Positions 2,435 to 33,639 are shown, counted from the stretch's first letter. The stretch is 64,000 bases of DNA from an uncultured Acidimicrobiales bacterium (GCA_938023735.1 CALJDK010000109.1:11125-75124); one strand, 5' to 3'. The notes: generated from the letters alone by a model not told the origin. Program-made: numbers and translations.

Positions 2435-2441
2435 CAAAAAC

Positions 2442-5730: not shown

Positions 5731-5738
5731 CGCTGGGC

Positions 5739-7022: not shown

Positions 7023-7042
7023 AGGCGCGACTTTCCCACAAA

Positions 7043-7061: not shown

Positions 7062-7080
7062 CTTGATTACGGTTCCGACC

Positions 7081-9405: not shown

Positions 9406-9467
9406 CTCCCCTTCCCCAAACCGTTGCAAACACCGTGGTGCCAGGACGCCGTTGCAGCGATTGCGGG

Positions 9468-10448: not shown

Positions 10449-10612
10449 TATGCATTTCTACCACTCGTCACCCTTGATTGGTCATGGTTGGCTTGAGTCA
10501 TGTCCGAGAAAATCGAAAGTCCGCTGCTCGTAGAGCCGACCGGAACAACCAACACCGGCACTACCGATGCCGAACTTCCCGACTACATCAGCACCACCGC
10601 TGGAGTCGACCT

Positions 10613-11155: not shown

Positions 11156-11184
11156 CGATCCGCCCGACTGCCTACGCTGTCCCG

Positions 11185-12341: not shown

Positions 12342-12370
12342 ACCTCTAGACCCCGAAGTCTTGCGTGACG

Positions 12371-14993: not shown

Positions 14994-15063
14994 ACGGCAT
15001 CAAAGCAAAAAGTTCGACAGCCGTCCAAAGCCGTTCGCCGGCAAAAGGAGGACTGCGGGGTCG

Positions 15064-17947: not shown

Positions 17948-20746
17948 TTACTGTTGGCTAGCGGCTGATTCTGAGCGGTCGATTGCTCTGGAGTCGGTGC
18001 CGAGGTAGCTGGCGACGACCAACGGGTTGTTACGGACCTCGTTTGGCTGGCCTTCAGCGATCACCTGGCCGGACTCGAGGCAATACACACGATCCGAGAT
18101 CGACATGATCAACGGCATGTCGTGCTCAATGATGAGAATGCTTGCGTCGAGTTCTTTGCGCAGGTTCAACAGCAGTGGACCGAACGCCTCGGTTTCGCGC
18201 TGGGCCAGACCCGCCGTGGGTTCGTCCATACACAACACCCGTGCATCAAGCGCCAGCAGTCCAGCAAGCTCGACGATCCGACGCGTTCCGGTTGAAAGGT
18301 CGGAAATGTAGGAGTCGGCGTAGCGACCAAGACCGAGGAAGTCGATGAGGTCCGTGGCCTCAGCCTTCTTGCGACGCTCCGCCGCAATGGCATGCGGCAG
18401 AAACAACGCCGTCGACACGAACCCGGTACGCCCGCGGGCTTCCAGCGCCACCTGCACGGTTTCGCGCACGGTGAGTTCGGGGAACAGCGTTGCTGCCTGG
18501 AACGTGCGACCCAATCCGGCTTTCGCTCGTGCGGTGGACGACTTGTTGGTGACGTTGGCACCGCCGATTTCAATAGAGCCCTTCGCCGGCACAAAGCCGC
18601 CGATGGCGTTCATGAGCGTGCTCTTACCCGCGCCGTTGGTTCCGATGAGGCCGACAATTTCGCCATCATCGACGTTCACGCTGACCGAATCGACCGCCCG
18701 GTTACCGCCGAAGGTGACCGAGATGTCGTCGGCCCTAAGCGTTGCCGGGACGCGCTCGCCCTCGCGACGGCTAAGGGTTGCGGGCGGCGTGCTGCTGATC
18801 TTGTTTTCGGTTTCCGGCAGCCGACCTTCGAGCCAGCCGAACAGCGCGTCGCGAAGCGCAAAGCCAATCTGCACCAAACCGCCCGGGAAATAGAGAAGCA
18901 GGAACAGGAGGCCAATGCTTGAGGTGAGCAGCGGAATGAGTTCGTTGTCGGAGAAGATCGTGGCCAGACCCTCAACCCAGAACGCGCCAAGCACCGGACC
19001 AAACAGCGTGCCGAGACCGCCGATGACCGCCATCGACACAACGCGAAGCGACTGGAAACTCACAAAGGCCAGGCCCGATAACGGAACCGTCGACAACGTG
19101 CCAGCCAGGAATGCTCCACCGAGACCAGCCAGCGCACCAGAGAAGGCAAAGGTGGTGAGCCGCGTGCGCATAGCGTTGACGGTGTAGGCAGCCGACGTGT
19201 CGGGGTTATCGCGAACCGCCAGCGTGGTGCGACCGATGCCGCTGTTGCGAATTCGAGCGACGAGCACCATCACCACAATGAGCGATGCCAACGAGAACCA
19301 GTAGTAGTTGCGGTCGTTGACCAGGTCGAGGCCAAGAAAGCTGCCTCGGGGAAACGGTACCGATGAGCGGTTGCCATCGGACACAAAGTCGCGGCGGTAG
19401 ATGTATTGCTGCGCGGCGATACCAAGGGCAAACGTGCTGACGGCAAGGAACAGGCCTTTCACCCGGAGTGCGCCAAGCCCGACCAGCGTGGCTGCCGCGG
19501 CGCCGAAGCCTGCGCCGCCGACAAGTGACAGCACAAACGGAACCCCAGCCCGCTGCAGACCAGCAGCACCGAACGCACCCAGACCAGCCAGGGCCATCTG
19601 ACCGAGCGAGAGTTGGCCCGACCAGCCGGTGATGACGGTTACCGACAGCGCACAGATCGCAAACGCAAGGATGGCCGAGTAGGTGAGCAGCTTGGAGTTG
19701 GCCGACACGAAGGTCGGTACCAGGGCGGCGAGAAACATAATGAAGGCAATCGCCAGAACCGACAGATTACGGATCCACCACTTGTCCCGGAGTGCCGTCG
19801 GGATGGGCTTTACTTTCGGGGCAAACGAGAACGTGGCCTTTTCGTTCTCTTCGCGGCCCTGGAAGTACACGGCAATCATGACGGCCACAAAGATGAGGAA
19901 GTCGACCAGGCCCGCTTGATCGAGGTAGTTGAATTGCACCACCGATTGCGCAACACCGATGAAGATGCCAGCCATGAGAGCTCGGGGGAACGAGACCATC
20001 TTGGCCAGCACCGCCGCGGCCAAGGCGCGAACGAGGGTGTTGGGGCCGATGGCATTGAAACCGGTGAGCGCACCACTGGTGCCCGACAGCAAGATGATGG
20101 AGAGCGTGGCCAGGAATCCGCTGATGCTCCACACCGCGGTAGAGACAAGCTGCGGGCTAATGCCCTGGGTACGGGCAAGGTTGGGGTTGGCGGCCGATGC
20201 CTGCACGGTCTTGCCGAAGGTGGTGCGGTTCATGACCCAACCGAGCACACCGGCAACGATGGGCACAACAACGATGGTGGTGAGTTCGGGCCCCGTCATC
20301 CGCAAACCGGCAACGTCGTCCCACGAACTGCCAACCGGTACAGGGAAGCGGGGTCGACCTTCCTGGGTGATATCGGGCAACGCCTGCACTAACGCCTGCA
20401 TCAGCTGCGCGATACCGATGGTGGCAACCAACAGGATCACTCGAGGCGCGGCAAAGAGTCGGCGAATGACAATGAGTTCGAGGCCCATCGCCAGAGCAGT
20501 ACCCAAGAGCAATGAGATGAACAGTGCCAACCAGTACGGAACGTTCCAGTTGAGCACCAGCAGCGCCATTAGCACCGCGGTGGGGAGACCCATGTTGGCC
20601 ACCGCAAAGTTGATAACGCGGGTCGAGCGGTAGATGAGCACGATGCCCATGCCGAGTAAGCCGAAAACCATGCCGCTGGCGATGCCGTTGTAGATCAGCT
20701 GCGAGGTTGCGCCGATGCCGAAGAGTTCGAAACTGAAGTTGAGCAT
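17948..20746 (-). CDS. ABC importer chain A2: fused LivH-like TMD + LivM-like TMD + LivG-like ATPase
   Basis: LIYRSTRVINFA (LivH block), GWSGQLSLGQMALAGLGAF (LivM block), and a C-terminal NBD with GTNGAGKST, LSTGTRRIVEL and CMDEPTAGLA. The start shares one nucleotide with the upstream stop (TGATG). Confidence 0.85.
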   Translation of the reverse strand: MLNFSFELFGIGATSQLIYNGIASGMVFGLLGMGIVLIYRSTRVINFAVANMGLPTAVLMALLVLNWNVPYWLALFISLLLGTALAMGLELIVIRRLFAAPRVILLVATIGIAQLMQALVQALPDITQEGRPRFPVPVGSSWDDVAGLRMTGPELTTIVVVPIVAGVLGWVMNRTTFGKTVQASAANPNLARTQGISPQLVSTAVWSISGFLATLSIILLSGTSGALTGFNAIGPNTLVRALAAAVLAKMVSFPRALMAGIFIGVAQSVVQFNYLDQAGLVDFLIFVAVMIAVYFQGREENEKATFSFAPKVKPIPTALRDKWWIRNLSVLAIAFIMFLAALVPTFVSANSKLLTYSAILAFAICALSVTVITGWSGQLSLGQMALAGLGAFGAAGLQRAGVPFVLSLVGGAGFGAAAATLVGLGALRVKGLFLAVSTFALGIAAQQYIYRRDFVSDGNRSSVPFPRGSFLGLDLVNDRNYYWFSLASLIVVMVLVARIRNSGIGRTTLAVRDNPDTSAAYTVNAMRTRLTTFAFSGALAGLGGAFLAGTLSTVPLSGLAFVSFQSLRVVSMAVIGGLGTLFGPVLGAFWVEGLATIFSDNELIPLLTSSIGLLFLLLYFPGGLVQIGFALRDALFGWLEGRLPETENKISSTPPATLSRREGERVPATLRADDISVTFGGNRAVDSVSVNVDDGEIVGLIGTNGAGKSTLMNAIGGFVPAKGSIEIGGANVTNKSSTARAKAGLGRTFQAATLFPELTVRETVQVALEARGRTGFVSTALFLPHAIAAERRKKAEATDLIDFLGLGRYADSYISDLSTGTRRIVELAGLLALDARVLCMDEPTAGLAQRETEAFGPLLLNLRKELDASILIIEHDMPLIMSISDRVYCLESGQVIAEGQPNEVRNNPLVVASYLGTDSRAIDRSESAASQQ

Positions 20747-23031
20747 CAGCCGCCCTCGTCGCCAAGGAACACTGCGCGGGCAAGGTCGTCGCGTTCGGCC
20801 AGCTCGGCAGCCGGGCCGGTAAAGCGGACCCGACCCTTCTCGAGGAAGATGGCCCGGTCGGCGATGGCCAGAGCCACGTTGAGCGACTGTTCGACGATAA
20901 TCATCGTCATGCCCTCGGCCTTGAGCTGTTCGATAACGGCCAGCAATCGCTCGACGATCACAGGAGCCAGACCCAGTGACAGCTCGTCGATGATAAGGAT
21001 CTCGGGGTCGTGCAGCAGGGTCATGGCCAACGCCAGAATCTGCTGCTGACCACCCGAGAGCGAGCCGGCGATGTCGTCGCCGCGGTCGGCGAGTTCGGGG
21101 AACAGCTCGAGCACACGAGCGATACGGCGCTCGGCTTCGCCTTCGTCGTTTCGGTACGGGAAGGCGGCCATCTCGAGGTTGTCGTCGATGCTCATGGGCA
21201 GGAAGACGCCCTTGCCGCCCGCGAGCATATGAATGCCAAGACCGTTACGTTGCTCGGCCGAGGTATAGGTGAAGGCCCGCCCGTTGAGGCGCACCACGCC
21301 CCGGCTGGGTGTGCCGAGTCCGGCGACCACGTTGAGGATGGTGGATTTACCGGCGCCGTTGGTACCGAGAAGCGCAACCACCTCGCCCTTCATCACCTCG
21401 AACTCAACGTCGAAGAGCACCTGCACCGGGCCGTACGCGAAGTCGAGGTTGCGCACCTGGATGACCGGCACATCGTCGGGGTCCATCTCGGCCATGCGTT
21501 CGATTTCGTCGCGGTCTTCGATCATCTCTTCAACAGCAAGCGAAATGTCGCGCCGGATAAACCGCGAGCCGTACACGATAAGAAGACCGCCGATGACTGC
21601 TGCCGGTGGAGCCACAACCCACATAGCCGTGCGGTTTCCGTATGAGTCCGACAGCGAACCCACCAGAAGACCGCCGAAGAATCCGCCCATCAGGAAGATG
21701 AAGACTGGAAGGAAGGCGAATGCCAGAGCCCGAATGCGGAACGGCGACACCGCAGCGATGATTGGTGCTGCAGCAACAAACGCCGCCGAGATAGCTGCTT
21801 GGGCGATGGCGATCATCACCACGAGTGTGCCGATGTTCTTGATGGGGAGCGCTATGGCGTAGATGACGCCCGCAAAGATGACGAAATAGCCAGCCAGGCG
21901 CATCATGGCTGGCGGGTCTTCGCGGAACTTCCGATCGAAGAGTTTGCCGACGACGGGAAGGATCGGAATGGAGACGACCCAGATCAGCGACTCGACCACG
22001 CCCCGCTTGAGCGGCCCAAATGCGTACCGGCTTTCCATCAACAGGTTGAACTGCAATGGCACGGCAATGAGGGCAAAACCGAGCACACCAACACCAACCG
22101 CAAGGAAGTAGAAGGCTCGAACCTGCGTGAGCCGGGCAAACGCCTGGCTGATGTTGATGGGTAGCTCGCGATCTTCGACCGCCACTTCGTCCTGTTCGAC
22201 TGCGGTCATCGAGTCGATATCGCCGTCGCCAAAAATGGCCTGCTGGTCGAACTGCCCGCGCTTGGGCTCCTTCAGGGTTATCGACGCCAAGCCGACGAGC
22301 ACTGGTGGAATCGCAAGAATGAAGAATGCCCACCGCCAACCTTCGGTGCCGCCGACTGCGGCGGCGGTTCCACCAACGATGAGTGGGCCTAGGAGCTGAC
22401 CGAGCGGTCGGCCAACACCTTCGAGCGCAAAGATCTGACTGCGGGCCTGCACCGGGTAGGCGTCGGTGAGCAGCGAGTTGGACACCGGAATTCGGTAGGC
22501 CTGACCGGCTCCGGTAAACGCATTGGTGATGAACAACTGGAACGGGTTGGCCACCATGCCGCTCAGGAACATCGCGACGGCCCAAAACAACGACGCGATA
22601 GGAATAATCGCCACCCGCTTGATGCGGTCGGCGATGGCCGCCATGGGCACGGCGCCGAGCACCAGCGCCACACCACCGAAGGACAACACACCGGTAAGTG
22701 CGGTGTCGGAAATACCAAACGTGTTCTGGATATCGGGAGCCACAACCCGGGTGGCTCGGGGGATGTCGTCGATCAGGTTCAACAGGAACATGAACAGGAC
22801 CATCTTGGCCCCGCCCACCCGAATCGCTTCTTTGAGCGACATTGGGTCGTCGCCGACACCCGGCAGGAGATCGTTGGGCAAGATGACGTCGGCAACCAGG
22901 GCCGCTTGCTCTTCCTGACGGCGAGCCTCTTCCTCAAGTACCGATGCCGTCAGCGAGGCGGCCACCGAAGAGGGGGCGGGGTCGACTGAACCGGGCTCGT
23001 CGCCCGGGCCGTTTGCTTCGTTGCTCACCAC
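20746..23031 (-). CDS. ABC importer chain A1: 12-TM MFS-fold domain fused to a LivF-like ATPase
   Basis: The N-terminal ~500 aa show a 6+6 TM pattern, an ADRIKRV loop and GWRWAFFILAIP. The C-terminal NBD carries GTNGAGKST, LSGGQQQ and IIDELSLGLAP. The start is uncertain: GTG at 23031 or 23028 is preferred, because the ORF-track GTG at 23136 lies only 19 bp from the divergent SBP start. Confidence 0.8.
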   Translation of the reverse strand: MVSNEANGPGDEPGSVDPAPSSVAASLTASVLEEEARRQEEQAALVADVILPNDLLPGVGDDPMSLKEAIRVGGAKMVLFMFLLNLIDDIPRATRVVAPDIQNTFGISDTALTGVLSFGGVALVLGAVPMAAIADRIKRVAIIPIASLFWAVAMFLSGMVANPFQLFITNAFTGAGQAYRIPVSNSLLTDAYPVQARSQIFALEGVGRPLGQLLGPLIVGGTAAAVGGTEGWRWAFFILAIPPVLVGLASITLKEPKRGQFDQQAIFGDGDIDSMTAVEQDEVAVEDRELPINISQAFARLTQVRAFYFLAVGVGVLGFALIAVPLQFNLLMESRYAFGPLKRGVVESLIWVVSIPILPVVGKLFDRKFREDPPAMMRLAGYFVIFAGVIYAIALPIKNIGTLVVMIAIAQAAISAAFVAAAPIIAAVSPFRIRALAFAFLPVFIFLMGGFFGGLLVGSLSDSYGNRTAMWVVAPPAAVIGGLLIVYGSRFIRRDISLAVEEMIEDRDEIERMAEMDPDDVPVIQVRNLDFAYGPVQVLFDVEFEVMKGEVVALLGTNGAGKSTILNVVAGLGTPSRGVVRLNGRAFTYTSAEQRNGLGIHMLAGGKGVFLPMSIDDNLEMAAFPYRNDEGEAERRIARVLELFPELADRGDDIAGSLSGGQQQILALAMTLLHDPEILIIDELSLGLAPVIVERLLAVIEQLKAEGMTMIIVEQSLNVALAIADRAIFLEKGRVRFTGPAAELAERDDLARAVFLGDEGG

Positions 23032-23077
23032 TCCCCCATACGCCCTACAGATTGGCTTACGGCGGGGTGCATTCAAA

Positions 23078-23096
23078 ATCTGACGGTCCGTCAGAT
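23078..23096. promoter_or_regulatory. Perfect 9-1-9 palindrome ATCTGACGGTCCGTCAGAT in the divergent promoter of ABC system A
   Basis: Seen in the ~124-bp gap between the MFS-ATPase gene and the SBP gene. It has the same CTGAC-N5-GTCAG core as 7043-7061. Confidence 0.45.
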
Positions 23097-23155
23097 ACGG
23101 TGTGGTGATGGAATGATCCCGGCGGAAAAGAATCACCTATGGAGGGGAACAATCA

Positions 23156-24622
23156 ATGAGCTTGCAAAGCGCATCTCGCCCGGCTCGAAAGGCCGGTGCA
23201 CGTATGAGGTTTTTGGCGATATTGGCGTTTCTCGCCCTTATCGCATCGGCCTGCGGTGGGGGCGAAGTCGCCACCGACGATGACGAACCCGATACCAGCA
23301 CCGACACCGAGGCCCCGGCCGATGACGAACCTGAGCCGGCCGACGAGGAGCCCGCCGACGAACCGGCCGACGAGGAACCGGCCGACGAACCCGATGAAGA
23401 ACCCGCCGAAACGGTTGAGCTCACCGCGTCGTTCCGAGGCGTCACCGAGGACACCATCACCATCGGTGTCACCATGCTCGACTTCGACGACCTCCAAGAG
23501 AAGAACCTCTCGCCACAGGGCTGGGGCGACCAGCAACTCGTGATGCAGACCTATATCGACGACATCAACGCAAACGGTGGCATCAACGGGCGAATGATCG
23601 AACCGATCTATGAGTTCTACACCCCACTTGGCACCACGGTTGCCGCCGAGGTTTGCACCCGTCTCACCAAAGATGAAGAGATCTTCGCCATCGTGGGTGG
23701 TTTCCTCGGCCCAGCCGAAACCGAGAACGTGTGCATCACCGATACCAACAACACAGTGTTGGTCAACGGCGTCCAGACCGCCGAACGGCTCGAGCAGTCG
23801 AAGGCACCATGGATTCAGCCCGGCTCGCTCAACAACCGCCGACTCGAAGCCTTCGTCGACATTCTCGATGGCGACGGTCGGCTCCAGGGCCGAAACGTGG
23901 CAATCATCGGGTCTGTCGAACGCGAAGATGTGTTCGAGGAAGCCATTGAGGTTGTCGAGGCCAAGGGCATCGAGCCCGTGCTCTCGGCCATCAACGACGT
24001 GCCGCAGGGCGACATCGTTGCCGAGAACGCTCGCTGGCAGGTACTCGCCGAGAACCTTCGAGCCGCTAATGCCGACGCTGTCCTGGTCATCGGTAGTGGT
24101 CAGGCTGCAGCCCGAGGCATTTTCGAAAACGGACTCGATATCGAAACCTGGTTCCTCGAGCGCACCGCTCTCGACAACCCGGGCGAGAACACCACGGCTG
24201 AAATGATCGACGGCATCATCACCTCCACGGGTCTTACCAACGATGAGATCTACGAAGAGGCCGGAACCCAGCAGTGCCGCGAGATCTTCTTTGCGGCCAA
24301 CCCGGGAATCGTCGAAGACAAACTCCCCAGCGAGTACGTCGAAGGTGAAGAGCAGTGGTTCAACCCCATTATGAGCTACTGCCGTTGGCTGCAGCTGTTC
24401 ACGCAGGTTGCGACGGCTGCAGGCCCCGACCTCACCCCGGAGACCTTCCTCGCTGCCGCCGAAAGTTTCGGTGACATCACACTGCCTGGCTTGCCGTTCG
24501 CATCGCTCGGCCCAGGAAAGTACGACGCCGACGATTCGTTCCGTCTGTCGGTGTTCGATATGACCATCGGTGAAACCGGCGACCTCACGCCGCTCACCGA
24601 CATCCTCGACGGCACCAGCTAG
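23156..24622 (+). CDS. ABC substrate-binding lipoprotein A (LivJ/Peripla_BP_6-like) with an acidic linker
   Basis: A GGAGGGGA Shine-Dalgarno sequence precedes the ATG. Lipobox LALIASAC, a ~50-aa D/E/P-rich linker, then ITIGVTMLD...DDINANGGINGRMIEP, typical of LivJ-type SBPs. Confidence 0.75.
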   Translation: MSLQSASRPARKAGARMRFLAILAFLALIASACGGGEVATDDDEPDTSTDTEAPADDEPEPADEEPADEPADEEPADEPDEEPAETVELTASFRGVTEDTITIGVTMLDFDDLQEKNLSPQGWGDQQLVMQTYIDDINANGGINGRMIEPIYEFYTPLGTTVAAEVCTRLTKDEEIFAIVGGFLGPAETENVCITDTNNTVLVNGVQTAERLEQSKAPWIQPGSLNNRRLEAFVDILDGDGRLQGRNVAIIGSVEREDVFEEAIEVVEAKGIEPVLSAINDVPQGDIVAENARWQVLAENLRAANADAVLVIGSGQAAARGIFENGLDIETWFLERTALDNPGENTTAEMIDGIITSTGLTNDEIYEEAGTQQCREIFFAANPGIVEDKLPSEYVEGEEQWFNPIMSYCRWLQLFTQVATAAGPDLTPETFLAAAESFGDITLPGLPFASLGPGKYDADDSFRLSVFDMTIGETGDLTPLTDILDGTS

Positions 24623-24640
24623 AGCGACGCGGAAGCCGCA

Positions 24641-25828
24641 ATGCACTCCGAACTTCCCGCCGCCGACGTCATCATCGTCGGCGGCGGGGTGATCGGGTCA
24701 TCGACGGCGTACTGGCTCAACCAGCGGGGGCTGAGCACTACCGTCATTGAACGCCGAAGCACGCTCGGATCGTGGACTACGCCGAACGCCCTTGGCACCA
24801 TCCGTACCCAGTACGGAACACCAACGCTGATCGACCTGGCGCAAGAGAGCCTCGAGTTCTACCAGAATATCGGCGAGCATTTGGGTGTTGACTCGGCCGA
24901 GCTCGGTTGGGCCAACCAGGGGTATCTGTACCTCACCGATAGCGAGGCGCACATCGAGCGCCTTCGTGAATCGATCGACACCTACGCCGAGCTTGGCGTC
25001 ACGTCATCGTCGCTGGTGACCGGCGGCGAACTGCACGACCGCTTCCCGTTTGTCGGCCAGGCGGTCGCTGGCATCTTTCATGCCGACGGGTCGTGGGTCG
25101 ACCCTGCTGCCATCACTTCGGCATGGGCCGGAGCCACCACCAACACCACGTTCGTTACCGACACAACCGCTACCGCCGTCGAACAGGTTGGCCAGGGCTG
25201 GCGGGTCGATACCGACCGGGGCTCGGTCGAAGGCGATGCGGTTGTGCTGTGCACCGGCCCAGCAGCGCCCGCGATGCTGGCCTCCAAAGGGTGCACCCTC
25301 CCCCACAAGATCACGCCCCGGTATCGGGCGTTCATTCCCGACGACGACCCCCACCACGCTGCAGCCCCACTGGTTATCAACATCGCCAACGGCGCCTACT
25401 GGCGCCCGGTACCGGGCGGCGTATGGATCAGTCACGCCAACGTCGACGATCGCCACGTCGAACCGGCCGATGGAGTGGTGGTTCCGCCGGCGTTTCTCGA
25501 CGAGTGCATCAACCAGATTGAACCCGTGTCGCCCCAGCTTGCTGAGACGGCTCGACGCACCGATTCCGGTGAAATCACCTACGCCGGCGGGTTCCAGGTG
25601 TACCCCGGCGACGATGCACCCTTCATCGGTCAGGTACCCGGAGCTCCAGGCCTGTTCACCAACTGCGGCCATTGGGCGGGGGTGATGCTGTCGCCTGCCG
25701 CAGGCCGCTTAGCCGCCGACCTGGTTACCGGCGCAGTGGCGGAGGCCCAGAACTCGTGTCGGCTCACCCGGTTCGACGACGGGCCGGTCGAGCGAAGCTC
25801 CACCAACAAGTTCGGCGGTTGGGGATGA
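24641..25828 (+). CDS. FAD-dependent oxidoreductase (DAO family; sarcosine-oxidase-beta/D-amino-acid-oxidase-like)
   Basis: N-terminal dinucleotide fold DVIIVGGGVIGSSTAYWL. 395 aa. The gene starts 18 bp after the SBP gene. Confidence 0.8.
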   Translation: MHSELPAADVIIVGGGVIGSSTAYWLNQRGLSTTVIERRSTLGSWTTPNALGTIRTQYGTPTLIDLAQESLEFYQNIGEHLGVDSAELGWANQGYLYLTDSEAHIERLRESIDTYAELGVTSSSLVTGGELHDRFPFVGQAVAGIFHADGSWVDPAAITSAWAGATTNTTFVTDTTATAVEQVGQGWRVDTDRGSVEGDAVVLCTGPAAPAMLASKGCTLPHKITPRYRAFIPDDDPHHAAAPLVINIANGAYWRPVPGGVWISHANVDDRHVEPADGVVVPPAFLDECINQIEPVSPQLAETARRTDSGEITYAGGFQVYPGDDAPFIGQVPGAPGLFTNCGHWAGVMLSPAAGRLAADLVTGAVAEAQNSCRLTRFDDGPVERSSTNKFGGWG

Positions 25829-26640
25829 CCAACGGTGCAACCTTGGCTGATGCGCTGGGGTGGACGGTCGAACGCTTGGCGCCGACGCTTGGCGCGCGAG
25901 TCACCGGGGCCAACCTTGCCGAACTCACCGACGATGTTGTTGCCGCGATGCAACAGCTCCTCGGCGAATACCTGGTGCTGGCATTCGATGCGCAGACCCT
26001 TACTCCTGATGAGCATGTGGCCATCGGCCAGGTGTTTGGAACGCCCTATCTGCACCCCTACCTCAAGCCGGTTCCCGAGCACCCGGCCATCCTCGAGGTC
26101 ATCAAAGAGGCCGACGACATCGCCACCTTTGGCGGCGAGTACTGGCATGCCGACATCACGTTTGAAGACCCTCCCGCATCGGCATCGGTGTTGTACGCCC
26201 GCGAGCTTCCGCCGCTCGGCGGCGACACGCTGTTCGCCAACCAACAGTTCGCATTCGCCACGCTTTCGCCCACCATGCAGGAGCGGTTGCGGAACCTGCG
26301 AGCGGTGCACCTCTACCCAGGGATGAGCGAAGACGACCCGCAAGCGATGGCAACCCACGACGTCATACGCCACAATCCGCGCAACGGCGCCGACAGCCTC
26401 TACGTGAACGCGGCGTTTGTCAGCCGGTTCGACGGTATGACCCAACAAGAGAGCGCCGGGCTGCTCGAGTTTCTCTTTGCCCACCAAGTCCGCCCCGAGG
26501 GGTCACTCCGCCTCCAATGGTCCGACGACATGGTGGCCATCTGGGACAACGGCTCGGTGATTCACTACGCCACGAACGACTACCCCGGCCACCGCCGCGA
26601 ACTCCGAAGAGTCACCGCAATGGAACAACCAAAGCCCTAA
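25825..26640 (+). CDS. TauD/TfdA-family Fe(II)/2-oxoglutarate dioxygenase
   Basis: GGEYWHADITFEDPPASASVLYARELPPLGGDTLFAN (HxD facial-triad region) and a distal H in IWDNGSVIHYA. ATGA overlap with the FAD oxidoreductase stop. Confidence 0.8.
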   Translation: MTNGATLADALGWTVERLAPTLGARVTGANLAELTDDVVAAMQQLLGEYLVLAFDAQTLTPDEHVAIGQVFGTPYLHPYLKPVPEHPAILEVIKEADDIATFGGEYWHADITFEDPPASASVLYARELPPLGGDTLFANQQFAFATLSPTMQERLRNLRAVHLYPGMSEDDPQAMATHDVIRHNPRNGADSLYVNAAFVSRFDGMTQQESAGLLEFLFAHQVRPEGSLRLQWSDDMVAIWDNGSVIHYATNDYPGHRRELRRVTAMEQPKP

Positions 26641-26647
26641 AGGACCC

Positions 26648-26714
26648 AAACCCCCGAACCAGTACCGTATTTGGGGGCTGTGCCCCGCGCTGGCGGTACT
26701 GGTTCGGGGTTTTT
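26648..26714. terminator. Bidirectional hairpin terminator between convergent genes
   Basis: AAACCCCCGAACCAGTACCG ... CGGTACTGGTTCGGGGTTT form a stem of about 19 bp with one bulge, enclosing an inner GGGGC/GCCCC stem. A T5 run follows on the + strand. Confidence 0.7.
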
Positions 26715-26719
26715 GCGTG

Positions 26720-28366
26720 TTAGCCGCTGGAGGCGGAGTAGTTTCCGGTTGGCACGATGCAGGTGTTCTGATCGTCGAAGGCTTTGTCTTCGCCGAAGCC
26801 ACATGGCCAAGTCCAGTTGGTCTCCTGAACCGCTCGGAACATTCCGGCCTGACCATCGACAATGGCGGGGATCATGTCGTTGGTATCGGCGGGTCCAAGG
26901 TTGGCAATGGCGTCAAGAATTGATTCGGGTGTTGGGTTGTCACCGGCATGGTAGAGAACCCGGGCCATCACGCGAACCTGCGCACAGATGGTTGCCACCA
27001 TTCCGGCAGCCGATCCGTCTTCGGTGCTGAAGTAATCGTGCAAGGGTCCGCCCTGCTCGTTGTAGGTATTGAGGCACAGCTCATTGAATGGCGGAAGCAC
27101 CGCACCGTCGGTGTTGTTCTGGCCGGTATAGGCGCTATCGCTCAAGAAGGCGCCGTTGTACATCTCAGCAGCAGCATCGCCACCAAATGCCTTCACCTTC
27201 GACGACACCAAGTCGCCATTCTGGCTGTTGATCGACGAGTTGAAGAACTGCACATCACCCACTGCAAAGCCCTGCGTAACCATCTCGGAGATGTACCCGG
27301 GAAGCGACAAGATGTTAAGGCCCGGGAACAAGGCATCGACGCCGGCCGCCTTCATGTTGGCCACGCTGTCTTGAAGACCCTCGGTGCACGATGTTGCACC
27401 ACCGCATCCAATCACGTCGGAAACTGCAACCTCGTATCCGAATTCGTTCAGCACCTCTTCCACCGTCGCGAACTCCTCAGCGATACCTGGGGTATCTGGC
27501 GTTACCAGACCAATGGTCTTGCCTTCGAGAAGTCCAGCGGCATCGGCCTGCGTCACAAGATCGCGCAATGCGGTGATCTGCGACGGGAACGCCGTGATGA
27601 GGCGACCCTGACTGCGTTCGTAAAATTCGGCCGGGAGACCTTGCGTCGTAATGAGCGGCGTCTCATGCTCCTCGGTGACGCAGAACACCGCCGAACCCTG
27701 GAATCCGGTGGAGTTCATCACGATGACCGAGTTGTTGTCTTCGGTGAGCTCGAGACAAGCGCCGGTGAGTTCTGCCACCGAGTCGGGCGCCAGCGGGCTC
27801 GACTCGGCCGTCTTTAGATCGAGCGTGCGGCCCCGAATGGTGCACTCGTTGAGAGCGTTCACCAAGAACTCGAACTGCTCGGCCACGTCGCCGACCTCGA
27901 CACCAAAGCCGATCGCGGCAAGCTCTTCGAGTGTGCTTCGTAGATGGCCGACCTCGATGGTGTCTTCGGTAATGCCATCCATACTTGCGGTTCGACCCTC
28001 GGCTGCCGGGTGCTCCTGGCAGAACTCGTCGAGGCTGCTGAATGGGTCGGTACTGCGATCGAAGCTGGCCTGAAAGTCGGCAAAGAGTGGGATGCCATGC
28101 GGGTCTTCGGCGAAGACCGGCTCGGAATCAGCCATTGCTTCTTCACCCTCTTGATCATCGTCGTCGCTGCCAGCCGGCGCCTCGGTGGTGGCGGGCTCGT
28201 CTTCCGGCTCCTCATCGGTGCCCTCGCCGCCGCCGCTGTCTCCTCCACCGCTATCGGCCTCGACCTGATCGTCGTCGGTCGACGTGCTCTCGCCCGAACA
28301 GGCTGAGGCGAACAGTGCGAAGGCCGTCAGCGCAATCAGAAAACGCATCACCAGTGAACGCTTCAT
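26720..28366 (-). CDS. ABC substrate-binding lipoprotein B (LivJ-type, divergent from A) with an acidic linker
   Basis: ATG at 28366 preceded by GAGGGGGAAG. Lipobox FALFASAC, then a ~80-aa D/E/G-rich linker. The overall size and position mirror SBP A. Confidence 0.6.
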   Translation of the reverse strand: MKRSLVMRFLIALTAFALFASACSGESTSTDDDQVEADSGGGDSGGGEGTDEEPEDEPATTEAPAGSDDDDQEGEEAMADSEPVFAEDPHGIPLFADFQASFDRSTDPFSSLDEFCQEHPAAEGRTASMDGITEDTIEVGHLRSTLEELAAIGFGVEVGDVAEQFEFLVNALNECTIRGRTLDLKTAESSPLAPDSVAELTGACLELTEDNNSVIVMNSTGFQGSAVFCVTEEHETPLITTQGLPAEFYERSQGRLITAFPSQITALRDLVTQADAAGLLEGKTIGLVTPDTPGIAEEFATVEEVLNEFGYEVAVSDVIGCGGATSCTEGLQDSVANMKAAGVDALFPGLNILSLPGYISEMVTQGFAVGDVQFFNSSINSQNGDLVSSKVKAFGGDAAAEMYNGAFLSDSAYTGQNNTDGAVLPPFNELCLNTYNEQGGPLHDYFSTEDGSAAGMVATICAQVRVMARVLYHAGDNPTPESILDAIANLGPADTNDMIPAIVDGQAGMFRAVQETNWTWPCGFGEDKAFDDQNTCIVPTGNYSASSG

Positions 28367-28555
28367 AATCTTCCCCCTCAAATAGGATTTGTGACCAATG
28401 TCATTACCTAACCGGCAAGGTAGCCCAACGCGATCCCCCAGCGCAGATCGCGATCGCCACATTTGATTCAGAGGAGTGGTTGGCACCAAGATCATGGCGG
28501 CCCGTGGGCATACGCTCCGGGCCGGGGGACAACCAAGGGGAACGAGACTCACGCA

Positions 28556-30793
28556 ATGAGTGCTGAGGAACCAGACCAAAGCGCCGGCTCACTCGCGCAG
28601 ACGGTATTGGTCGAAGAGGCGCGCCGTCAGGCCACCCAGGCCGAGCGCGACGAGCGAACCATCCTTCCCGACGATCTGCTTCCCGGCGTCGGCGACGAGC
28701 CGATGTCGGTGAAGGAGGCCATGACCGTCGGCGGCAAAAAGATGCTCGTCTTCATGTTTCTGCTCAACGTCATCGACGACCTCCCACGTGCTATCCGCGT
28801 CATCGCCCCCGACATCCAGAACACCTTCAACCTCACCGACACCACACTCACCGGGGTGCTCTCGTTCGGCGGTGTTGCGCTCGTCGCCGGCGCCGTGCCC
28901 ATGGCCGGCCTCGCCGACCGCATCAAGCGGGTCACCATCATTCCGTTCGCGTCGATGTTCTGGGCAGCCACCATGTTCCTCACCGCCTTCGTGATCAATC
29001 CGTTCCAGCTGTTCATGACCAACGCGTTCACCGGCGCAGGGCAGGCGTACCGAATTCCGGTGTCCAACTCGCTGCTCACCGACGCCTACCCGGTGCAGGC
29101 CCGCAGTCAGATCTTTGCCCTCGAAGGAATTGGGCGACCGCTCGGCCAGCTTCTCGGACCGCTGATCGTGGGCGGCGTCGCTGCCATCGCTGGCGGCGAC
29201 GAAGGATGGCGCTGGGTCTTCGTTGTTCTCGCGGTCCCGCCCGTGCTCGTTGGATTGGCTTCCTTCCGGCTCAAAGAACCGCGCCGTGGTCACTTCGACC
29301 AGAAGGCCATCCTCGGCACCACCGACCCGGGGTATGACGACATCCTCTACGACTACGACGACGACGACAACGCCGAAGAAGAGCTTCCCGTCAGTGTGAG
29401 CCAAGCGTTCGCCCGTCTCGGCAAAGTACGTGCCTTCTACTACCTGGCCGTCGGCGTTGGCGTTCTCGGCTTTGCGCTTATCGCCGTGCCGCTCCAGTTC
29501 AACCTGCTCCTCGAGAGCAAGTACAGCATGGGCCCCCTGCGGCGCGGCGTCGTTGAATCGTTGATTTGGATCATCACGATTCCGATTCTTCCGTTCGTCG
29601 GCAAGCTCCTCGACAAGAAGTTCCGTGAAGATCCTCCCGCCATGATGCGCCTGGCCGGCTACTTCGTGATCCTCTCGGGCGTGCTCTACGCGATCGGGCT
29701 ACCTCTCAAGCCCATCGGCCCGCTCGTCGTATTCATCGCTCTCGCCCAGGCAGCCATCGCCGCAGCGTTCGTTGCCGCCGGGCCAATCATCGCTGCGGTA
29801 TCACCGTTTCGAATTCGAGCCCAAGCGTTTGCCTTCCTCCCCCTCTTCATTTTCCTCATGGGTGGGTTCTTTGGCGGCCTCATCGTTGGTCAGCTCTCGG
29901 ACGCATTCGGCAACCGCACGGCCATGCTCACGGTTGCGCCACCATCGGCGCTCATCGGCGGCCTTCTCATAATCTACGGCTCGCGCTTCATTCGAAGCGA
30001 CATTTCGGTAGCGGTCGAAGAGCTCATCGAAGAGCGCGATGAAGTCGAAAACATGATCCAGAACCCCGACGACATCCCGGTGATTCAGGTTCGCAACCTC
30101 GACTTCTCGTACGGACTTGTGCAGGTGTTGTTCGACGTTGGCTTTGAGGTACACGAAGGCGAGGTCGTTGCCCTGCTCGGCACCAACGGCGCCGGAAAGT
30201 CGACCATCATCCGAGCCATCAGCGGTCTCGGCACGCCCGACCGAGGTGTGATTCGACTCAACGGTCGCACCATCACCTACACCGATGCTGAACGCCGATT
30301 CCATGAAGGCATCGTGCAGCTCCGTGGCGGCGCAGGAATCTTCCCCGACCTCACCATCGGCGACAACCTCAAAGCAGCGGTACTCGGATCGAAGCTCGAG
30401 AAAGACGACACCGAGGCTCGCATGGCCGAAGCCGTCCAGCGGTTCCCGGCGCTCGATGGACGACTCGGCGAACGCGCCGGCGACCTGTCTGGCGGACAGC
30501 AACAGATGCTTGCTCTGGCCATGGCGCTCATGCACAAGCCCGAGATCCTCATCATCGACGAACTGTCGCTGGGTCTGGCGCCACTTGTGGTGCAGCAGCT
30601 GCTCGAGGTCATCGAGGAACTCAAGGCCGAAGGAATGACCATGCTCATCGTGGAGCAGTCGGTCAACATCGCCCTCTCATTGGCCGATCGGGCCGTGTTT
30701 GTCGAGAAGGGCGTAGTTCGCTTCGAAGGCAACGCCGCTGAGCTCGCCGAACGCGACGACTTGGCCGAAGCGGTCTTCCTGGGCGGCCACTGA
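28556..30793 (+). CDS. ABC importer chain B1: 12-TM MFS-fold domain fused to a LivF-like ATPase
   Basis: Close paralogue of 20746-23031, sharing blocks such as FTGAGQAYRIPVSNSLLTDAYPVQARSQIFALEG. The NBD carries GTNGAGKST, LSGGQQQ and IIDELSLGLAP. Confidence 0.8.
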   Translation: MSAEEPDQSAGSLAQTVLVEEARRQATQAERDERTILPDDLLPGVGDEPMSVKEAMTVGGKKMLVFMFLLNVIDDLPRAIRVIAPDIQNTFNLTDTTLTGVLSFGGVALVAGAVPMAGLADRIKRVTIIPFASMFWAATMFLTAFVINPFQLFMTNAFTGAGQAYRIPVSNSLLTDAYPVQARSQIFALEGIGRPLGQLLGPLIVGGVAAIAGGDEGWRWVFVVLAVPPVLVGLASFRLKEPRRGHFDQKAILGTTDPGYDDILYDYDDDDNAEEELPVSVSQAFARLGKVRAFYYLAVGVGVLGFALIAVPLQFNLLLESKYSMGPLRRGVVESLIWIITIPILPFVGKLLDKKFREDPPAMMRLAGYFVILSGVLYAIGLPLKPIGPLVVFIALAQAAIAAAFVAAGPIIAAVSPFRIRAQAFAFLPLFIFLMGGFFGGLIVGQLSDAFGNRTAMLTVAPPSALIGGLLIIYGSRFIRSDISVAVEELIEERDEVENMIQNPDDIPVIQVRNLDFSYGLVQVLFDVGFEVHEGEVVALLGTNGAGKSTIIRAISGLGTPDRGVIRLNGRTITYTDAERRFHEGIVQLRGGAGIFPDLTIGDNLKAAVLGSKLEKDDTEARMAEAVQRFPALDGRLGERAGDLSGGQQQMLALAMALMHKPEILIIDELSLGLAPLVVQQLLEVIEELKAEGMTMLIVEQSVNIALSLADRAVFVEKGVVRFEGNAAELAERDDLAEAVFLGGH

Positions 30794-33639
30794 TGCTTCA
30801 CTCGCTCGCTTCCACCTTCACCCTGGCCATTGAGATATCGCAACAGAGCGTTCTGGTCGGCCTGGTCACCGGCCTCGCCTACGCCGCGCTCGCCGCTGGC
30901 TTCGTGCTGGTGTACCGGTCGACCGGCGTGCTCAACTTCGCCCACGCCGAAACCGGCGCCCTCTGCGTCGGCGTGTTCCTTTACCTGCTGGTCAACGTCA
31001 ACCTCAACTGGTGGGTGGCGTACGTCTTGGCGGTGTTGCTTGGTGGGTTCATCGGGTTATGTACCGAACTCATCGTGGTGCGGCGCCTCTTTCACGCGCC
31101 CCGACTCGTCTTGCTCATCGCCACCATCGGCGTGGCGCAGCTGCTGACGTTCATCAAGTTCAACCTGCCGACGGTTTCGTCGCCGGGCCCGATCCCACTT
31201 CCCTTCAGTCGGGTGTTCGAGCCCACATCGAGTCTTCGTATCCTGCCCCGCGAATACGTGGTGCTCATCGTTATCCCCCTCGTCATCCTTGCCCTCGCCT
31301 GGTTCCTGGGTCGTACCCGGTTTGGTCTTGCCGTGCGAGCTACAGCCTCGAACGGCGATACCGCTCGGGTGTATGGAACCAGCCCAAAAACCACCTCCAC
31401 GATCGTCTGGGTCATTGGTGGTTGCCTCGCCGCCGCCACGGCAATCTTGTTCGCTCCGTACACAATCAGCAACGCAGCAGCCGCAGGCACGTCGGCGCTC
31501 GGCGCAAGTCTGTTGCTTCGAGCGGTCACCGTTGGCCTTATCGCCCGGATGCAATCGCTGCCCTTGGTACTGGTGGGCGGACTAGCGGTTGGCCTCATCG
31601 AACAGATCGTTGCCAACAACTCCAGCCGTCGAGCCGTCGATGTCTACCTGTTCATCGCCGTGCTCATCGTGGTGTTGTTTGTCAAGCGGTCGCGTACCGA
31701 AGACGCCAGTTGGTCGCTCTCACCACAGCTGCGGCCGGTACCCCATCGCCTGAAGGACGTCCTTTGGGTAAAGCACTTCAACCTCATCGGGTTCGGGTTG
31801 CTGTTCGGGGCCTTTGCGTTGTTCGGGTTGATCGTCGACAGCAACTCGCAGCTCTTCACCTGGACCGGCATCCTCGTCACCGCCATCGTTGTTGTTTCCC
31901 TCTCGCTCCTTACCGGCTGGGCCGGACAGCTTTCGCTCGGCCAGTTCGCGTTTGTCGGCCTGGGCGCCATGACGATGGTGACCTTCACGCAGGGCAACGA
32001 GCTGCCGTTCATCGAGTACGCCTTCACCATGTCGTGGGGCCTCGCGCTGGTGTTTTCGGTCATCGTTGGAGTGGTGGCCGCAATCATCATTGGAATCCCG
32101 GCGCTGCGGGTGAAAGGCCTGTTCCTGGCCGTCGCCACCCTGGCGTTCGCCATCGCCGCAGCCAACTGGATTCTGCTGCGCGACGTGTTTACTGGCGGAA
32201 GCACCACCACCCGCCCCGTCGCCAAACCTGTCCTCGGTCCCATCGACTTGGGCGAGTCTCGCAAGGCCTACTTCTTCTTCTGCCTGCTGTGTCTCATCCT
32301 CGTGTCGGCGCTGGTATCGAGAATTCGCCGCACAGGCATTGGTCGAAACCTCATTGCGGTTCGCGAAAACGAACAGGCGGCTGCGGCCGTCACCGTAAAT
32401 CCGAACCGGGTAAAGCTCATCGCTTTCGCGCTGTCGGGCGGAATCGCCGCCTTCGCTGGCGCCCTGTTCATCACCCTCAACTCGGCCATCCAGCCCGCTT
32501 CGGTGTTTGGCCCCGACAAGTCGATTCAGGTCATCACCATCGCCATCATCGGCGGGCTCGGCTCGGTGGCCGGCCCGGTACTTGGCGCCCTTTGGGTTGT
32601 CGGACTGCCCTCGTTCTGGGACGACCCACCCGGCGTCATCGTGCTACTCACCAGCAGCATCGGCCTGCTGATACTCCTCATGTACTTCCCCGGTGGAATC
32701 CAGCAATTGGTGTACACCGCTCGCGATGCCATCCTCGCGGCCGCCGACCGGAGCCGCGGCGAACCCGAGCTTCCCGAGCGCCGAGTGGTCCACGCACTTC
32801 CCACCCGCACCACCGGAGCTATCGATCTTCCCCCTGGCGTGCCAGCGCTGAAGACCGAAGGCGTCAGCGTGCAGTTCGGTGGCAACCGGGCCGTCAACGA
32901 TGTGGCCTTCCACGTAATGCCCAACGAGCTCGTCGGACTCATCGGTACCAACGGTGCGGGCAAGTCGACGCTGCTCAACGCGGTAAGCGGATTCGTGCCG
33001 TCCACCGGCAGCATCGAAGTATTGGGCAACGAGGTCAACAACCTTTCCGCTCACAAGCGCCACGAGATGGGTCTTGGCCGAGGCTTCCAGGCCGCCAAGC
33101 TCTACCCCGACCTCACCGTTCGCGAAACGCTGATGGTGGCGCTCGAAGCCCGCGAGTCAACCAAGCTTGTGCCCACGCTTCTTGGGTTCCCCAGCGCTCG
33201 AGCCTCGGAGCGTCGCAAGCGCAGCGAAGCCGATGACATCATCGACTTTCTGGGTCTCGGCCACTTCTCCGAGAGCTACGTTGCCGCGCTATCCACCGGT
33301 ACTCGTCGCATCGTCGAACTCGGCGGACTCCTTGCCGTCGACGCTCAGGTGCTGCTGCTCGATGAGCCAACCGGTGGTGTTGCCCAGAAGGAGACCGAGG
33401 CGTTCGGGCCGCTCATTCGGCGCATTCAGCAAGAACTTCAGGCTGCCGTAGTGGTCATCGAACACGACATGCCGTTGGTAATGAGCATCAGCGATCGGGT
33501 GTACTGCCTGGAGTCAGGCGAGGTCATTGCCGAGGGCGCACCCGAGGATGTCCGAAGCGACCCGCTGGTGATTTCGTCGTACCTCGGAACCGACACTCGT
33601 GCCATCGAACGAAGCGACCAGAGCGCCACCACCACCTAA
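30793..33639 (+). CDS. ABC importer chain B2: fused LivH-like TMD + LivM-like TMD + LivG-like ATPase
   Basis: VLVYRSTGVLNFAHAE, GWAGQLSLGQFAFVGLGAM, and an NBD with GTNGAGKST, LSTGTRRIVEL and LLDEPTGGVA. TGATG overlap with B1. Confidence 0.85.
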   Translation: MLHSLASTFTLAIEISQQSVLVGLVTGLAYAALAAGFVLVYRSTGVLNFAHAETGALCVGVFLYLLVNVNLNWWVAYVLAVLLGGFIGLCTELIVVRRLFHAPRLVLLIATIGVAQLLTFIKFNLPTVSSPGPIPLPFSRVFEPTSSLRILPREYVVLIVIPLVILALAWFLGRTRFGLAVRATASNGDTARVYGTSPKTTSTIVWVIGGCLAAATAILFAPYTISNAAAAGTSALGASLLLRAVTVGLIARMQSLPLVLVGGLAVGLIEQIVANNSSRRAVDVYLFIAVLIVVLFVKRSRTEDASWSLSPQLRPVPHRLKDVLWVKHFNLIGFGLLFGAFALFGLIVDSNSQLFTWTGILVTAIVVVSLSLLTGWAGQLSLGQFAFVGLGAMTMVTFTQGNELPFIEYAFTMSWGLALVFSVIVGVVAAIIIGIPALRVKGLFLAVATLAFAIAAANWILLRDVFTGGSTTTRPVAKPVLGPIDLGESRKAYFFFCLLCLILVSALVSRIRRTGIGRNLIAVRENEQAAAAVTVNPNRVKLIAFALSGGIAAFAGALFITLNSAIQPASVFGPDKSIQVITIAIIGGLGSVAGPVLGALWVVGLPSFWDDPPGVIVLLTSSIGLLILLMYFPGGIQQLVYTARDAILAAADRSRGEPELPERRVVHALPTRTTGAIDLPPGVPALKTEGVSVQFGGNRAVNDVAFHVMPNELVGLIGTNGAGKSTLLNAVSGFVPSTGSIEVLGNEVNNLSAHKRHEMGLGRGFQAAKLYPDLTVRETLMVALEARESTKLVPTLLGFPSARASERRKRSEADDIIDFLGLGHFSESYVAALSTGTRRIVELGGLLAVDAQVLLLDEPTGGVAQKETEAFGPLIRRIQQELQAAVVVIEHDMPLVMSISDRVYCLESGEVIAEGAPEDVRSDPLVISSYLGTDTRAIERSDQSATTT

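Follow-up and report, generated by a model that had tools for sequence, protein, structure and literature searches.

Organization of the two gene sets

We analysed a 64-kb stretch of DNA from an uncultured Acidimicrobiales bacterium (GCA_938023735.1, CALJDK010000109.1:11125-75124; hereafter the window) in which two gene sets, A (17948-24622) and B (26720-33639), lie in mirror orientation. Each set encodes a lipoprotein solute-binding protein (SBP), a protein that joins LivH-, LivM- and LivG-like domains (LivHMG), and a protein in which a complete major facilitator superfamily (MFS) domain is followed by a LivF-type nucleotide-binding domain (NBD) of the ATP-binding cassette (ABC) type. This MFS-LivF fusion is the main subject of the present work.

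In set A, the LivHMG gene (A2; 17948-20746, minus strand; 932 amino acids) was delineated with Pfam, NCBIfam and tblastn, the last of which places LivH at about 19835-20746, LivM at about 18866-19792 and the LivG NBD at about 17957-18739. The MFS-LivF gene (A3; 20746-23031, minus strand; Pfam and NCBIfam) encodes 761 amino acids, identical to the homologue P0026, and consists according to tblastn of an MFS core (about 21547-22875), a helical linker (about 21466-21546) and the LivF NBD (about 20749-21465). On the plus strand, SBP-A (23156-24622; 488 amino acids) was recognized from its translation and from Pfam Peripla_BP_6. The 124 bp between the divergent A3 and SBP-A genes (23032-23155, from the map of open reading frames, ORFs) presumably hold the promoters of both, and a consensus scan of this region found no sigma-70-like promoter. 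A 497-aa ORF antisense to SBP-A (23153-24646, minus strand) is apparently a shadow ORF, as often arises where the G+C content is high, and we do not count it among the candidate genes.

Set B begins with SBP-B (26720-28369, minus strand; 549 amino acids), an atypical, divergent cluster-B SBP, which a divergent intergenic region of 186 bp (28370-28555, read from the sequence) separates from the MFS-LivF gene (B3; 28556-30793, plus strand). The 745-aa product of B3, identical to P0001 and characterized with Pfam, AlphaFold and a fold search, comprises an N-terminal cytoplasmic helix with a DDLLPGVG motif, an MFS core (about 28670-30001), a continuous helix formed by transmembrane helix 12 (TM12) and the linker (about 30002-30082), and the LivF NBD (30083-30790). 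The LivHMG gene (B2; 30793-33639, plus strand; 948 amino acids; Pfam, NCBIfam and tblastn) follows, with LivH at 30793-31707, LivM at 31750-32712 and the LivG NBD at 32845-33636 (tblastn). The Rfam scan found no RNA family, and hence no riboswitch, at either divergent intergenic region.

In both sets the stop codon of the MFS-LivF gene overlaps the start codon of the LivHMG gene in the sequence TGATG, as the original prediction had noted when it proposed that the two genes are translationally coupled. Its statement that no free livF or livG gene exists also holds for the window, where the four NBDs detected by tblastn lie one each inside A2, A3, B2 and B3. It had left unmentioned the orientation of the SBP genes: SBP-A is on the plus strand and SBP-B on the minus strand, each transcribed divergently from both transporter genes of its own set.

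The ABC importer components

Each set encodes a binding-protein-dependent ABC importer of the HAAT (LivJ-HMGF/Urt) family. Pfam detects in A2 and in B2 two BPD_transp_2 domains, one ABC_tran domain and the LivG tail BCA_ABC_TP_C, which agrees with the LivH-LivM-LivG chain of 930-950 amino acids that had been proposed. PF02653 matches two stretches in each of these proteins (1.8e-49 in A2, 1.8e-60 in B2), and NCBIfam finds UrtB- and UrtC-like stretches in B2. The LivG-type NBDs of A2 and B2 carry ABC_tran plus PF12399, with LivG/UrtD as best NCBIfam match; the LivF-type NBDs of A3 and B3 carry ABC_tran, with UrtE/LivF as best match. The top Foldseek match of the fused NBD is 1JI0 (37% identity). 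None of the equivalog cut-offs of NCBIfam is reached, whether for LivF (165-167 bits against 441), LivG (201-203 against 362), UrtE (170-184 against 286) or UrtD (186-192 against 304). Since these scores are far below the cut-offs, the proteins are not orthologues of LivF, LivG, UrtD or UrtE, and a substrate cannot be transferred from these models. A sequence search for a solved structure of a HAAT membrane domain found none.

The claim that the first gene of each set encodes a LivJ-type lipoprotein SBP stands for set A, where Peripla_BP_6 scores 49.7 bits, above the cut-off of 31.7, but is weaker for set B, where the same model gives only 23.3 bits, below that cut-off, and where the tie to the family is the identity of about 25% to SBP-A alone. 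A cognate cluster-B SBP is thus clear in set A and weakly indicated in set B. The signal peptides end in ...LIASAC (SBP-A, followed by a long acidic linker) and ...LFASAC (SBP-B, followed by an acidic linker).

The N-terminal domain of the fusion proteins

The MFS_1 model of Pfam matches A3 with 107.8 bits (7e-31) and B3 with 108.2 bits (5.5e-31), against a cut-off of 33.4. The AlphaFold model of the whole B3 chain has a pLDDT of 81 and a pTM of 0.77, and that of its first 504 residues a pLDDT of 89 and a pTM of 0.86. Both models contain 12 TM helices (6+6), connected in the middle, from TM6 to TM7, by a disordered acidic loop, and an N-terminal cytoplasmic helix. In both, TM12 runs on as a single helix to about residue 502, ending just before the first strand of the NBD. 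Because the fold search with the whole chain was dominated by matches to the NBD, the MFS-only model was searched with Foldseek; the best match was SPNS2 (8ex4, TM-score 0.82), followed by Spns1, HnSpns and DgoT (range 0.75-0.82). The N-terminal part of the fusion is thus a genuine, canonical 12-TM MFS fold. The N-terminus of MFS proteins is cytoplasmic; with 12 TM helices, the NBD therefore comes to lie on the same side of the membrane, which for the MFS is the cytoplasm.

Pfam, AlphaFold and Foldseek agree with the original prediction that the third gene encodes a protein of about 745-760 amino acids made of a 6+6 TM MFS domain with a long acidic central loop and a LivF NBD, and the MFS-like nature of the N-terminal domain, on which that prediction depended, is borne out by the MFS_1 score, the 12-TM models and the MFS structures retrieved. 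The expected Pfam pattern, MFS_1 plus ABC_tran on one chain and two BPD_transp_2 plus ABC_tran on the other, was obtained, and the motifs that had been quoted (ADRIKRV, GWRWAFF/GWRWVFV, GTNGAGKST, LSGGQQQ, IIDELSLGLAP and LSTGTRRIVEL) all occur in the translations.

Both by sequence and by structure, the top matches in the PDB are Spinster proteins (HnSpns 6E8J, SPNS2, Spns1) and the ACS symporter DgoT. The likeness includes the L-N-x-x-D...R region of TM1, motif A and the ...P-x-x-x-S-L-x-x-D-x-Y-P motif of TM4. However, the best sequence match in the PDB (HnSpns, 3e-12) is significant only over residues 64-217, i.e., the N-terminal half, and the identity to Spinster proteins is 17-20%. In the alignment with HnSpns, the Asp of TM1 of the Spinster proteins faces an invariant Pro (Pro77) and the Glu of TM4 (E129 of HnSpns) faces Gln163; in HnSpns, the Asp-Arg pair of TM1 and this Glu serve proton coupling. 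The domain described here thus differs from Spinster proteins in having Pro in place of the Asp of the TM1 'DR' and Gln in place of the Glu of TM4, and in being joined to an ABC ATPase. Membership of the Spinster family (TC 2.A.1.49) was rejected on the grounds of low identity, a match confined to the N-terminal half and key residues that are not kept. As judged by these comparisons, Spinster proteins are the closest solved relatives, by resemblance and not by membership.

Distribution of the MFS-LivF fusion

A search with B3 returned more than 600 matches, the best 120 of which are full-length, share 63-100% identity and all carry MFS_1 plus ABC_tran. More than 300 full-length homologues display the fusion without interruption, including records of metagenome-assembled genomes (MAGs) deposited as whole chromosomes and a cultured Embleya strain, and proteins identical to those of the window occur on other contigs (P0001, P0002). 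Hence, each fusion is one uninterrupted ORF, as had been proposed: neither a stop codon nor a frameshift lies at the junction of the two intact ORFs in the window, and the arrangement recurs in these homologues. Several members that apparently lack the NBD or are truncated (P0124, P0135, P0144, P0190, P0265) are frameshifted fusions that lose the frame right after 'LQVRNLDFSYG'. Homologues are labelled 'ABC-type branched-chain amino acid transport ATPase component/MFS permease' by JGI and 'MFS transporter' or 'ATP-binding protein' by NCBI. JGI also gives the label 'branched-chain amino acid transport system ATP-binding protein' to some truly free-standing MFS proteins, presumably by transfer of the name from the fused family.

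We compared 79 loci, one genome per species, whose titles are nearly all those of Acidimicrobiia or one of their subgroups; they include Aldehydirespiratoraceae, Poriferisocius, Ilumatobacter and Microthrix, and several of the Poriferisocius MAGs have sponge-derived names. As far as the contigs reach, the MFS-LivF gene is followed by the LivHMG gene in all 79. In nearly all of them one or two SBP genes, almost always divergent, lie upstream of the MFS-LivF gene, and orthologues of SBP-B occupy this position in nearly all related loci. The mirror pair of sets A and B recurs in two loci (L001 and L046).

An exhaustive search with the MFS domain only gave 119 cluster representatives at E<1e-30, and fused MFS-NBD chains are still found at 27-30% identity. 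In every case the MFS is joined to LivF and occupies the N-terminus. A large sister family (P0244, P0313-P0431) consists of triple fusions, MFS-LivF-LivG, of about 1,000 amino acids. For instance, in a Microthrixaceae genome (GCA_020637215.1, locus L080) the triple fusion (8001-11030) lies between a LivHM gene and a gene for a 570-aa protein without Pfam match, which may be the SBP, and adjoins a gene of the acyl-CoA-synthetase type (AMP-binding). Furthermore, the cultured streptomycete Embleya sp. NBC_00888 (NZ_CP108785.1, locus at 4,149,130-4,154,600; L085, 8932-15402) carries genes for an MFS-LivF protein (754 amino acids), a LivHMG protein (937 amino acids) and an SBP (451 amino acids), co-directional and in this order, flanked by genes for an alpha/beta hydrolase and a GDSL lipase. 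The Embleya MFS-LivF protein is 44% identical to B3 over its full length, possesses the DDLLPGVG motif and aligns without gap in the linker. NZ_CP108785.1 is a 5.7-Mb record that bears a plasmid label in PLSDB, where it is almost without annotation.

No named match came from outside Actinomycetota: all belong to Acidimicrobiia, unclassified Actinomycetota or Embleya. The MFS-LivF fusion is old and widespread in Actinomycetota. The architecture is far less singular than the original prediction suggested: it belongs to a large and deep family that JGI has already annotated automatically.

The same taxa also often encode free-standing MFS relatives of about 450 amino acids, whose TM1 motif reads LNAVDELDR. 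The fused MFS therefore descends from an autonomous actinobacterial MFS clade. They were considered as unfused partners of liv operons and rejected as such, their contexts being unrelated to liv. One of them (P0469; L082, 8001-9506) has as neighbours genes for short-chain dehydrogenases, a thiolase, a ChsH2-type OB protein, an acyl-CoA synthetase and an enoyl-CoA hydratase. This setting resembles a beta-oxidation cluster and may give a clue to the class of substrate handled ancestrally.

Mosaic history of sets A and B

Between the two sets, identity is 72% for the whole chains of A3 and B3, 47% for A2 and B2 and 25% for the SBPs. By domain, it amounts to 78% for the MFS, 67% for the linker, 66% for the LivF NBD, 64% for LivG, 43% for LivM, 36% for LivH and 25% for the SBP. 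The sets had been described as inverted copies of one plan; this is true of the mirrored three-gene plan itself, but these unequal identities point to a mosaic history.

Five related loci (L031, L033, L035, L036 and L037, positions 1-6050) carry an A-lineage MFS-LivF/LivHMG/SBP system in tandem upstream of a B-lineage one. In L031, L033 and L035, the A-lineage system has an SBP-A-like gene and its LivH and LivG are 58% and 71% identical to those of A2. However, its MFS is only 36-37% identical to that of A3 (over the C-terminal part held there), whereas the MFS of the B-lineage system of the same loci is 64-65% identical to it. Since A3 is closer to the B-lineage than to the A-lineage MFS, the MFS-LivF gene of set A was replaced by a B-lineage copy. 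After this replacement, the NBD of A3 diverged and the MFS remained as it was. The replaced state is also found, at 88-94% identity, in A-type orthologues of three other genomes, and the replacement is therefore old. The same orthologues leave unsupported a very recent gene conversion as the origin of the high identity of the two MFS domains. A recent inverted or tandem duplication of all three genes was also rejected, as set A has LivHM domains and an SBP from a distant lineage, whereas its A3 is of B-lineage origin.

The MFS module thus serves LivHM domains (36-43% identity) and SBPs (25%) of differing lineages and has been swapped between paralogues. It is therefore unlikely to be a substrate-specific path; with regard to the roles that had been suggested for the MFS (second translocation path, regulatory or transceptor module, SBP dock), this comparison speaks only against a path that determines specificity.

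Constraint on the MFS domain and its linker

For B-type orthologues, the identities (in %) of the MFS, LivH and LivM domains are 85/85/85, 77/78/78, 77/71/73, 65/53/51 and 55/52/54, and the MFS evolves at the pace of LivH and LivM or slower. Column entropies were calculated from an alignment of 40 sequences. Their mean is 0.71 in the helices of the cavity and domain interface and 1.04 in the peripheral helices TM3, TM6, TM9 and TM12; TM2, TM7 and TM11 reach 0.40-0.47, below the NBD (0.68). The loop that joins TM2 to TM3 carries motif A (G-x-x-x-D-R-x-x-R), seen here as LADRIKR. Its D-R-x-x-R residues and related loop positions do not vary, whether the member is fused or free-standing, D121, R122 and R125 being invariant or nearly so. 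These residue numbers, like all those derived from the alignment used for conservation and entropy (alignment A1), are one higher than the true B3 numbers (ATG of B3 at 28556). Low entropy in the cavity helices together with an invariant motif A is the signature of a working MFS and not of an anchor. Two other features changed after fusion: the D-E-x-D-R motif of TM1, which free-standing relatives keep well, has degenerated in many of the fused lineages (DDLPR/DDIPR in the window), and the Arg of motif B in TM4 is Asn in A3 and B3.

The linker, counted from the Asp after TM12 to the Tyr of 'LDFSYG' in the NBD, has 35-37 residues in 291 of the 298 fused proteins, including triple fusions and the Embleya protein. 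Its sequence is poorly conserved (entropy 1.17). A fixed length despite a variable sequence argues for a geometric or mechanical constraint rather than a loose tether.

Putative role of the MFS domain

Slow evolution, conserved cavity helices and motif-A loops and a fixed linker length lead us to infer that the MFS is a working part of the system and not ballast. In the mechanism that we propose, the lipoprotein SBP would capture the substrate and deliver it to the LivH-LivM membrane pair, the path of which would be powered by a heterodimer of LivG, located behind LivM, and LivF, located on the second chain, the two transporter chains being produced in a coupled fashion through the TGATG overlap. 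The MFS would be an accessory to the importer and act on something that all paralogues share. It would still switch conformation, and its state would be mechanically tied to LivF through the TM12-linker helix. Two options can be considered: (i) the ATP-driven closure of LivF and LivG would drive or gate the MFS, providing an ATP-assisted second path for a ligand shared by the paralogues or (ii) the state of the MFS would gate the ATPase, a control of the transceptor type. That the MFS is conformationally active and coupled to LivF, in one direction or the other, is our tentative preference, held with somewhat less than even confidence. A hybrid primary/secondary transporter, in which ATPase closure would drive or gate the alternating access of the MFS through the TM12-linker helix so that one ATPase pair powers two translocators, the SBP-fed LivHM path and an MFS path for a ligand shared by the paralogues, is in itself an unlikely arrangement; to our knowledge, an ATP-energised MFS has not been described.

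Several points weigh against such coupling. The single-chain models show neither the geometry of the MFS relative to the NBD nor a contact between the MFS and LivHM. TM12 is a peripheral helix of the MFS and would be a poor lever for a rocker-switch motion, and packing geometry alone could fix the length of the linker. The TM1 motif is degenerate in many fused lineages while it is well kept in free-standing relatives, and the residues of the Spinster proton site align with Pro and Gln; these changes fit a loss of classical transport equally well as an altered energy coupling. Gly, Pro and Ala account for many of the invariant residues of the MFS, a composition that points to the packing of helices more than to contact with a ligand. 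Lastly, we can name no ligand that all paralogues would share.

The changes in TM1 and at the proton site and the prevalence of Gly, Pro and Ala among invariant positions would also be expected of a passive anchor or scaffold, a non-transporting MFS that would hold LivF, otherwise the only soluble subunit, at the membrane and would organize assembly or stoichiometry, its conservation reflecting packing and interfaces. Such a role would agree with the interchangeability of the module between paralogues and with the fact that, across the family, NBDs are always the tethered parts (LivG to LivHM, LivF to the MFS, or LivF and LivG together to the MFS). However, one helix would be enough for this purpose, whereas the domain retained has 12 and evolves no faster than LivH and LivM. 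Moreover, conservation peaks in helices of the cavity and interface (TM2, TM4, TM7 and TM11) and is lowest in the lipid-facing helices TM3, TM6, TM9 and TM12, although contacts with LivHM would be expected there, and the motif-A loops, which serve conformational switching, are invariant. Evolutionary rates and conservation pattern thus disfavour a mere membrane anchor, and we consider this explanation rather improbable, albeit the one among the alternatives that survives best.

The fused domain is conserved in the manner of a working MFS, and relatives of the same clade exist as ordinary, free-standing MFS genes. Both facts would suit an independent secondary transporter, mechanically unlinked from the ATPase and fused to it for co-expression or co-localization (a Rosetta-stone fusion), which might, for instance, serve as an exporter of a common catabolic by-product or as a low-affinity uptake route. 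But a loose tether would not be expected to keep its length constant within one residue across lineages that are 27-30% identical, nor to be predicted as a helix continuous with TM12. An unlinked carrier also fits poorly with the invariable choice of LivF as partner and the invariable N-terminal position of the MFS, with a TM1 motif that is kept in free-standing members and relaxed in fused ones, and with a 1:1 stoichiometry with the importer, hard to justify for an unrelated flux. We regard it as unlikely.

Still less probable, in our view, is a role in handling lipids or docking SBPs, in which a Spinster-like MFS would bind the SBP by its diacylglyceryl anchor or move amphipathic or lipid-like species, thereby keeping SBPs near the transporter or serving hydrophobic substrates. 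The nearest solved relatives carry lysolipids or sphingosine 1-phosphate, the two SBPs look like lipoproteins on long acidic tethers, genes of lipid type lie nearby in other genomes (the AMP-binding acyl-CoA synthetase gene next to the Microthrixaceae triple fusion; the GDSL lipase and alpha/beta hydrolase genes of Embleya), and a role independent of the substrate would be compatible with the swap of the module. Nevertheless, the similarity to Spinster proteins is weak, with a significant match limited to the N-terminal half and without the key residues, the associations with neighbours are anecdotal, and this analysis gave no sign of a contact between SBP and MFS.

Finally, although frameshifted or truncated metagenomic homologues (P0135, P0144, P0190) attest that assembly errors occur in the MFS-LivF family, an artefact in which a frameshift, a misassembly or a wrong gene call would have joined a separate MFS gene to livF is effectively refuted, and its probability negligible, given two independent intact ORFs in the window, identical proteins on other contigs and more than 300 homologues, among them whole-chromosome records and a cultured strain, with the same junction and the same linker length.

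Genomic neighbourhood and possible substrates

Two plus-strand genes identified with NCBIfam, which encode a DAO-type FAD oxidoreductase (24641-25828) and a TauD-family dioxygenase (about 25822-26640), separate SBP-A from SBP-B. None of the 79 related loci contains a homologue of either gene, and L001 has its two SBP genes immediately next to each other. The region 24641-26640 therefore looks like a lineage-specific insertion and not a part of the conserved system, and a substrate deduced from the TauD and DAO genes was rejected because of their absence from the related loci.

Downstream of set B lie genes for a PLP-dependent decarboxylase (33750-35168), a sulfite/nitrite reductase (35303-37144) and two PLP enzymes of Cys/Met metabolism (37717-38919 and 39873-40979), and a sulfatase gene is located upstream in the window (6979-9405). 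As a hint to the substrate, this organosulfur or amino-acid flavour of the neighbourhood is suggestive only. The region that adjoins set A (5739-16997) encodes a cytochrome P450, an AraC/DJ-1-type regulator, an amidase, an Amidohydro_2 enzyme, a thiolase (12371-13546) and a ChsH2-like hydratase with OB and zinc-ribbon domains (14001-14993); it is a cluster for the catabolism of side chains of lipids or steroids.

A further MFS gene (43878-45143; 421 amino acids, weak MFS_1 match) lies beside genes for an HpcH/HpaI aldolase and alpha/beta hydrolases; kinship between its product and the fused MFS domain was considered, and none was detectable. In the last 10 kb of the window (54001-64000), the G+C content drops from about 0.61-0.63 to 0.58-0.59 and the GC skew turns positive.

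Significance and comparison with known systems

No transporter superfamilies are larger than those of the ABC importers and the MFS carriers, which are usually treated as alternative and independent solutions to transport. Here, a complete MFS, clearly maintained by selection, is joined to the ABC ATPase within a binding-protein-dependent importer. If the two are indeed coupled, mechanically or by regulation, this would represent a new principle of transporter design or control. Many such systems are encoded by Acidimicrobiia, among them groups known from sponges, from activated sludge and from fresh water. Most of these systems now bear only the label 'MFS transporter' or 'ATP-binding protein', which misdescribes them as another kind of transporter. 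The homologous locus of a cultured Embleya opens the question to experiment.

Among characterized transporters, we know of none that joins an MFS to an ABC NBD in one chain. The original prediction could not map the fusion to a characterized transporter; the full-text literature searched, in which subscription journals are largely absent, yielded no description of an MFS domain fused to a LivF-type NBD. The only fusion listed in a transporter census from the Saier laboratory is the sensor kinase-MFS family, TC 2.A.1.34 (PMC3924187). The architecture has thus been seen but not studied: annotation pipelines label both halves, and we found no paper on it. What is new here is the constraint on the MFS, the conservation of its cavity helices, the constant length of the linker and the gene replacement in set A.

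Among known systems, the importer part resembles the HAAT family (TC 3.A.1.4), which includes LivJ/LivK-LivHMGF of E. coli and UrtABCDE, by its Peripla_BP_6 (cluster B) SBP, by two BPD_transp_2 membrane domains, one LivH-like and one LivM-like, and by two distinct NBDs, a LivG type with BCA_ABC_TP_C and a LivF type with LSGGQQQ and with VEQS in place of the H-loop His. It differs in that LivH, LivM and LivG form a single chain, that LivF bears an N-terminal 12-TM MFS domain, that the SBPs, SBP-B being atypical, are long lipoproteins with acidic tethers, and that scores for LivF, LivG, UrtD and UrtE are 165-202 bits against equivalog cut-offs of 286-441.

In LplT-Aas and UhpC, an MFS domain is fused to, or signals through, a partner that is not a transporter. 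These proteins and TC 2.A.1.34 share with the present fusion the association of an MFS with a non-transport partner, but none of their partners is an ABC NBD or belongs to a binding-protein-dependent importer. In the ArsB-ArsA arsenite pump, a carrier of the secondary type is physically associated with an ATPase, an earlier example of ATP hydrolysis driving or modulating a carrier fold. However, ArsB lies outside the MFS and ArsA outside the ABC ATPases, they are not joined in one protein, and the pump has neither a binding protein nor a second pair of membrane domains. In MetNI, ModBC and MalK, an additional domain on the ATPase subunit controls the cycle by trans-inhibition or by binding a regulator. 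They are the closest analogue for a gating role of the MFS, with the difference that their domains are small, soluble and C-terminal, whereas the domain described here is an N-terminal transporter fold of 12 TM helices.

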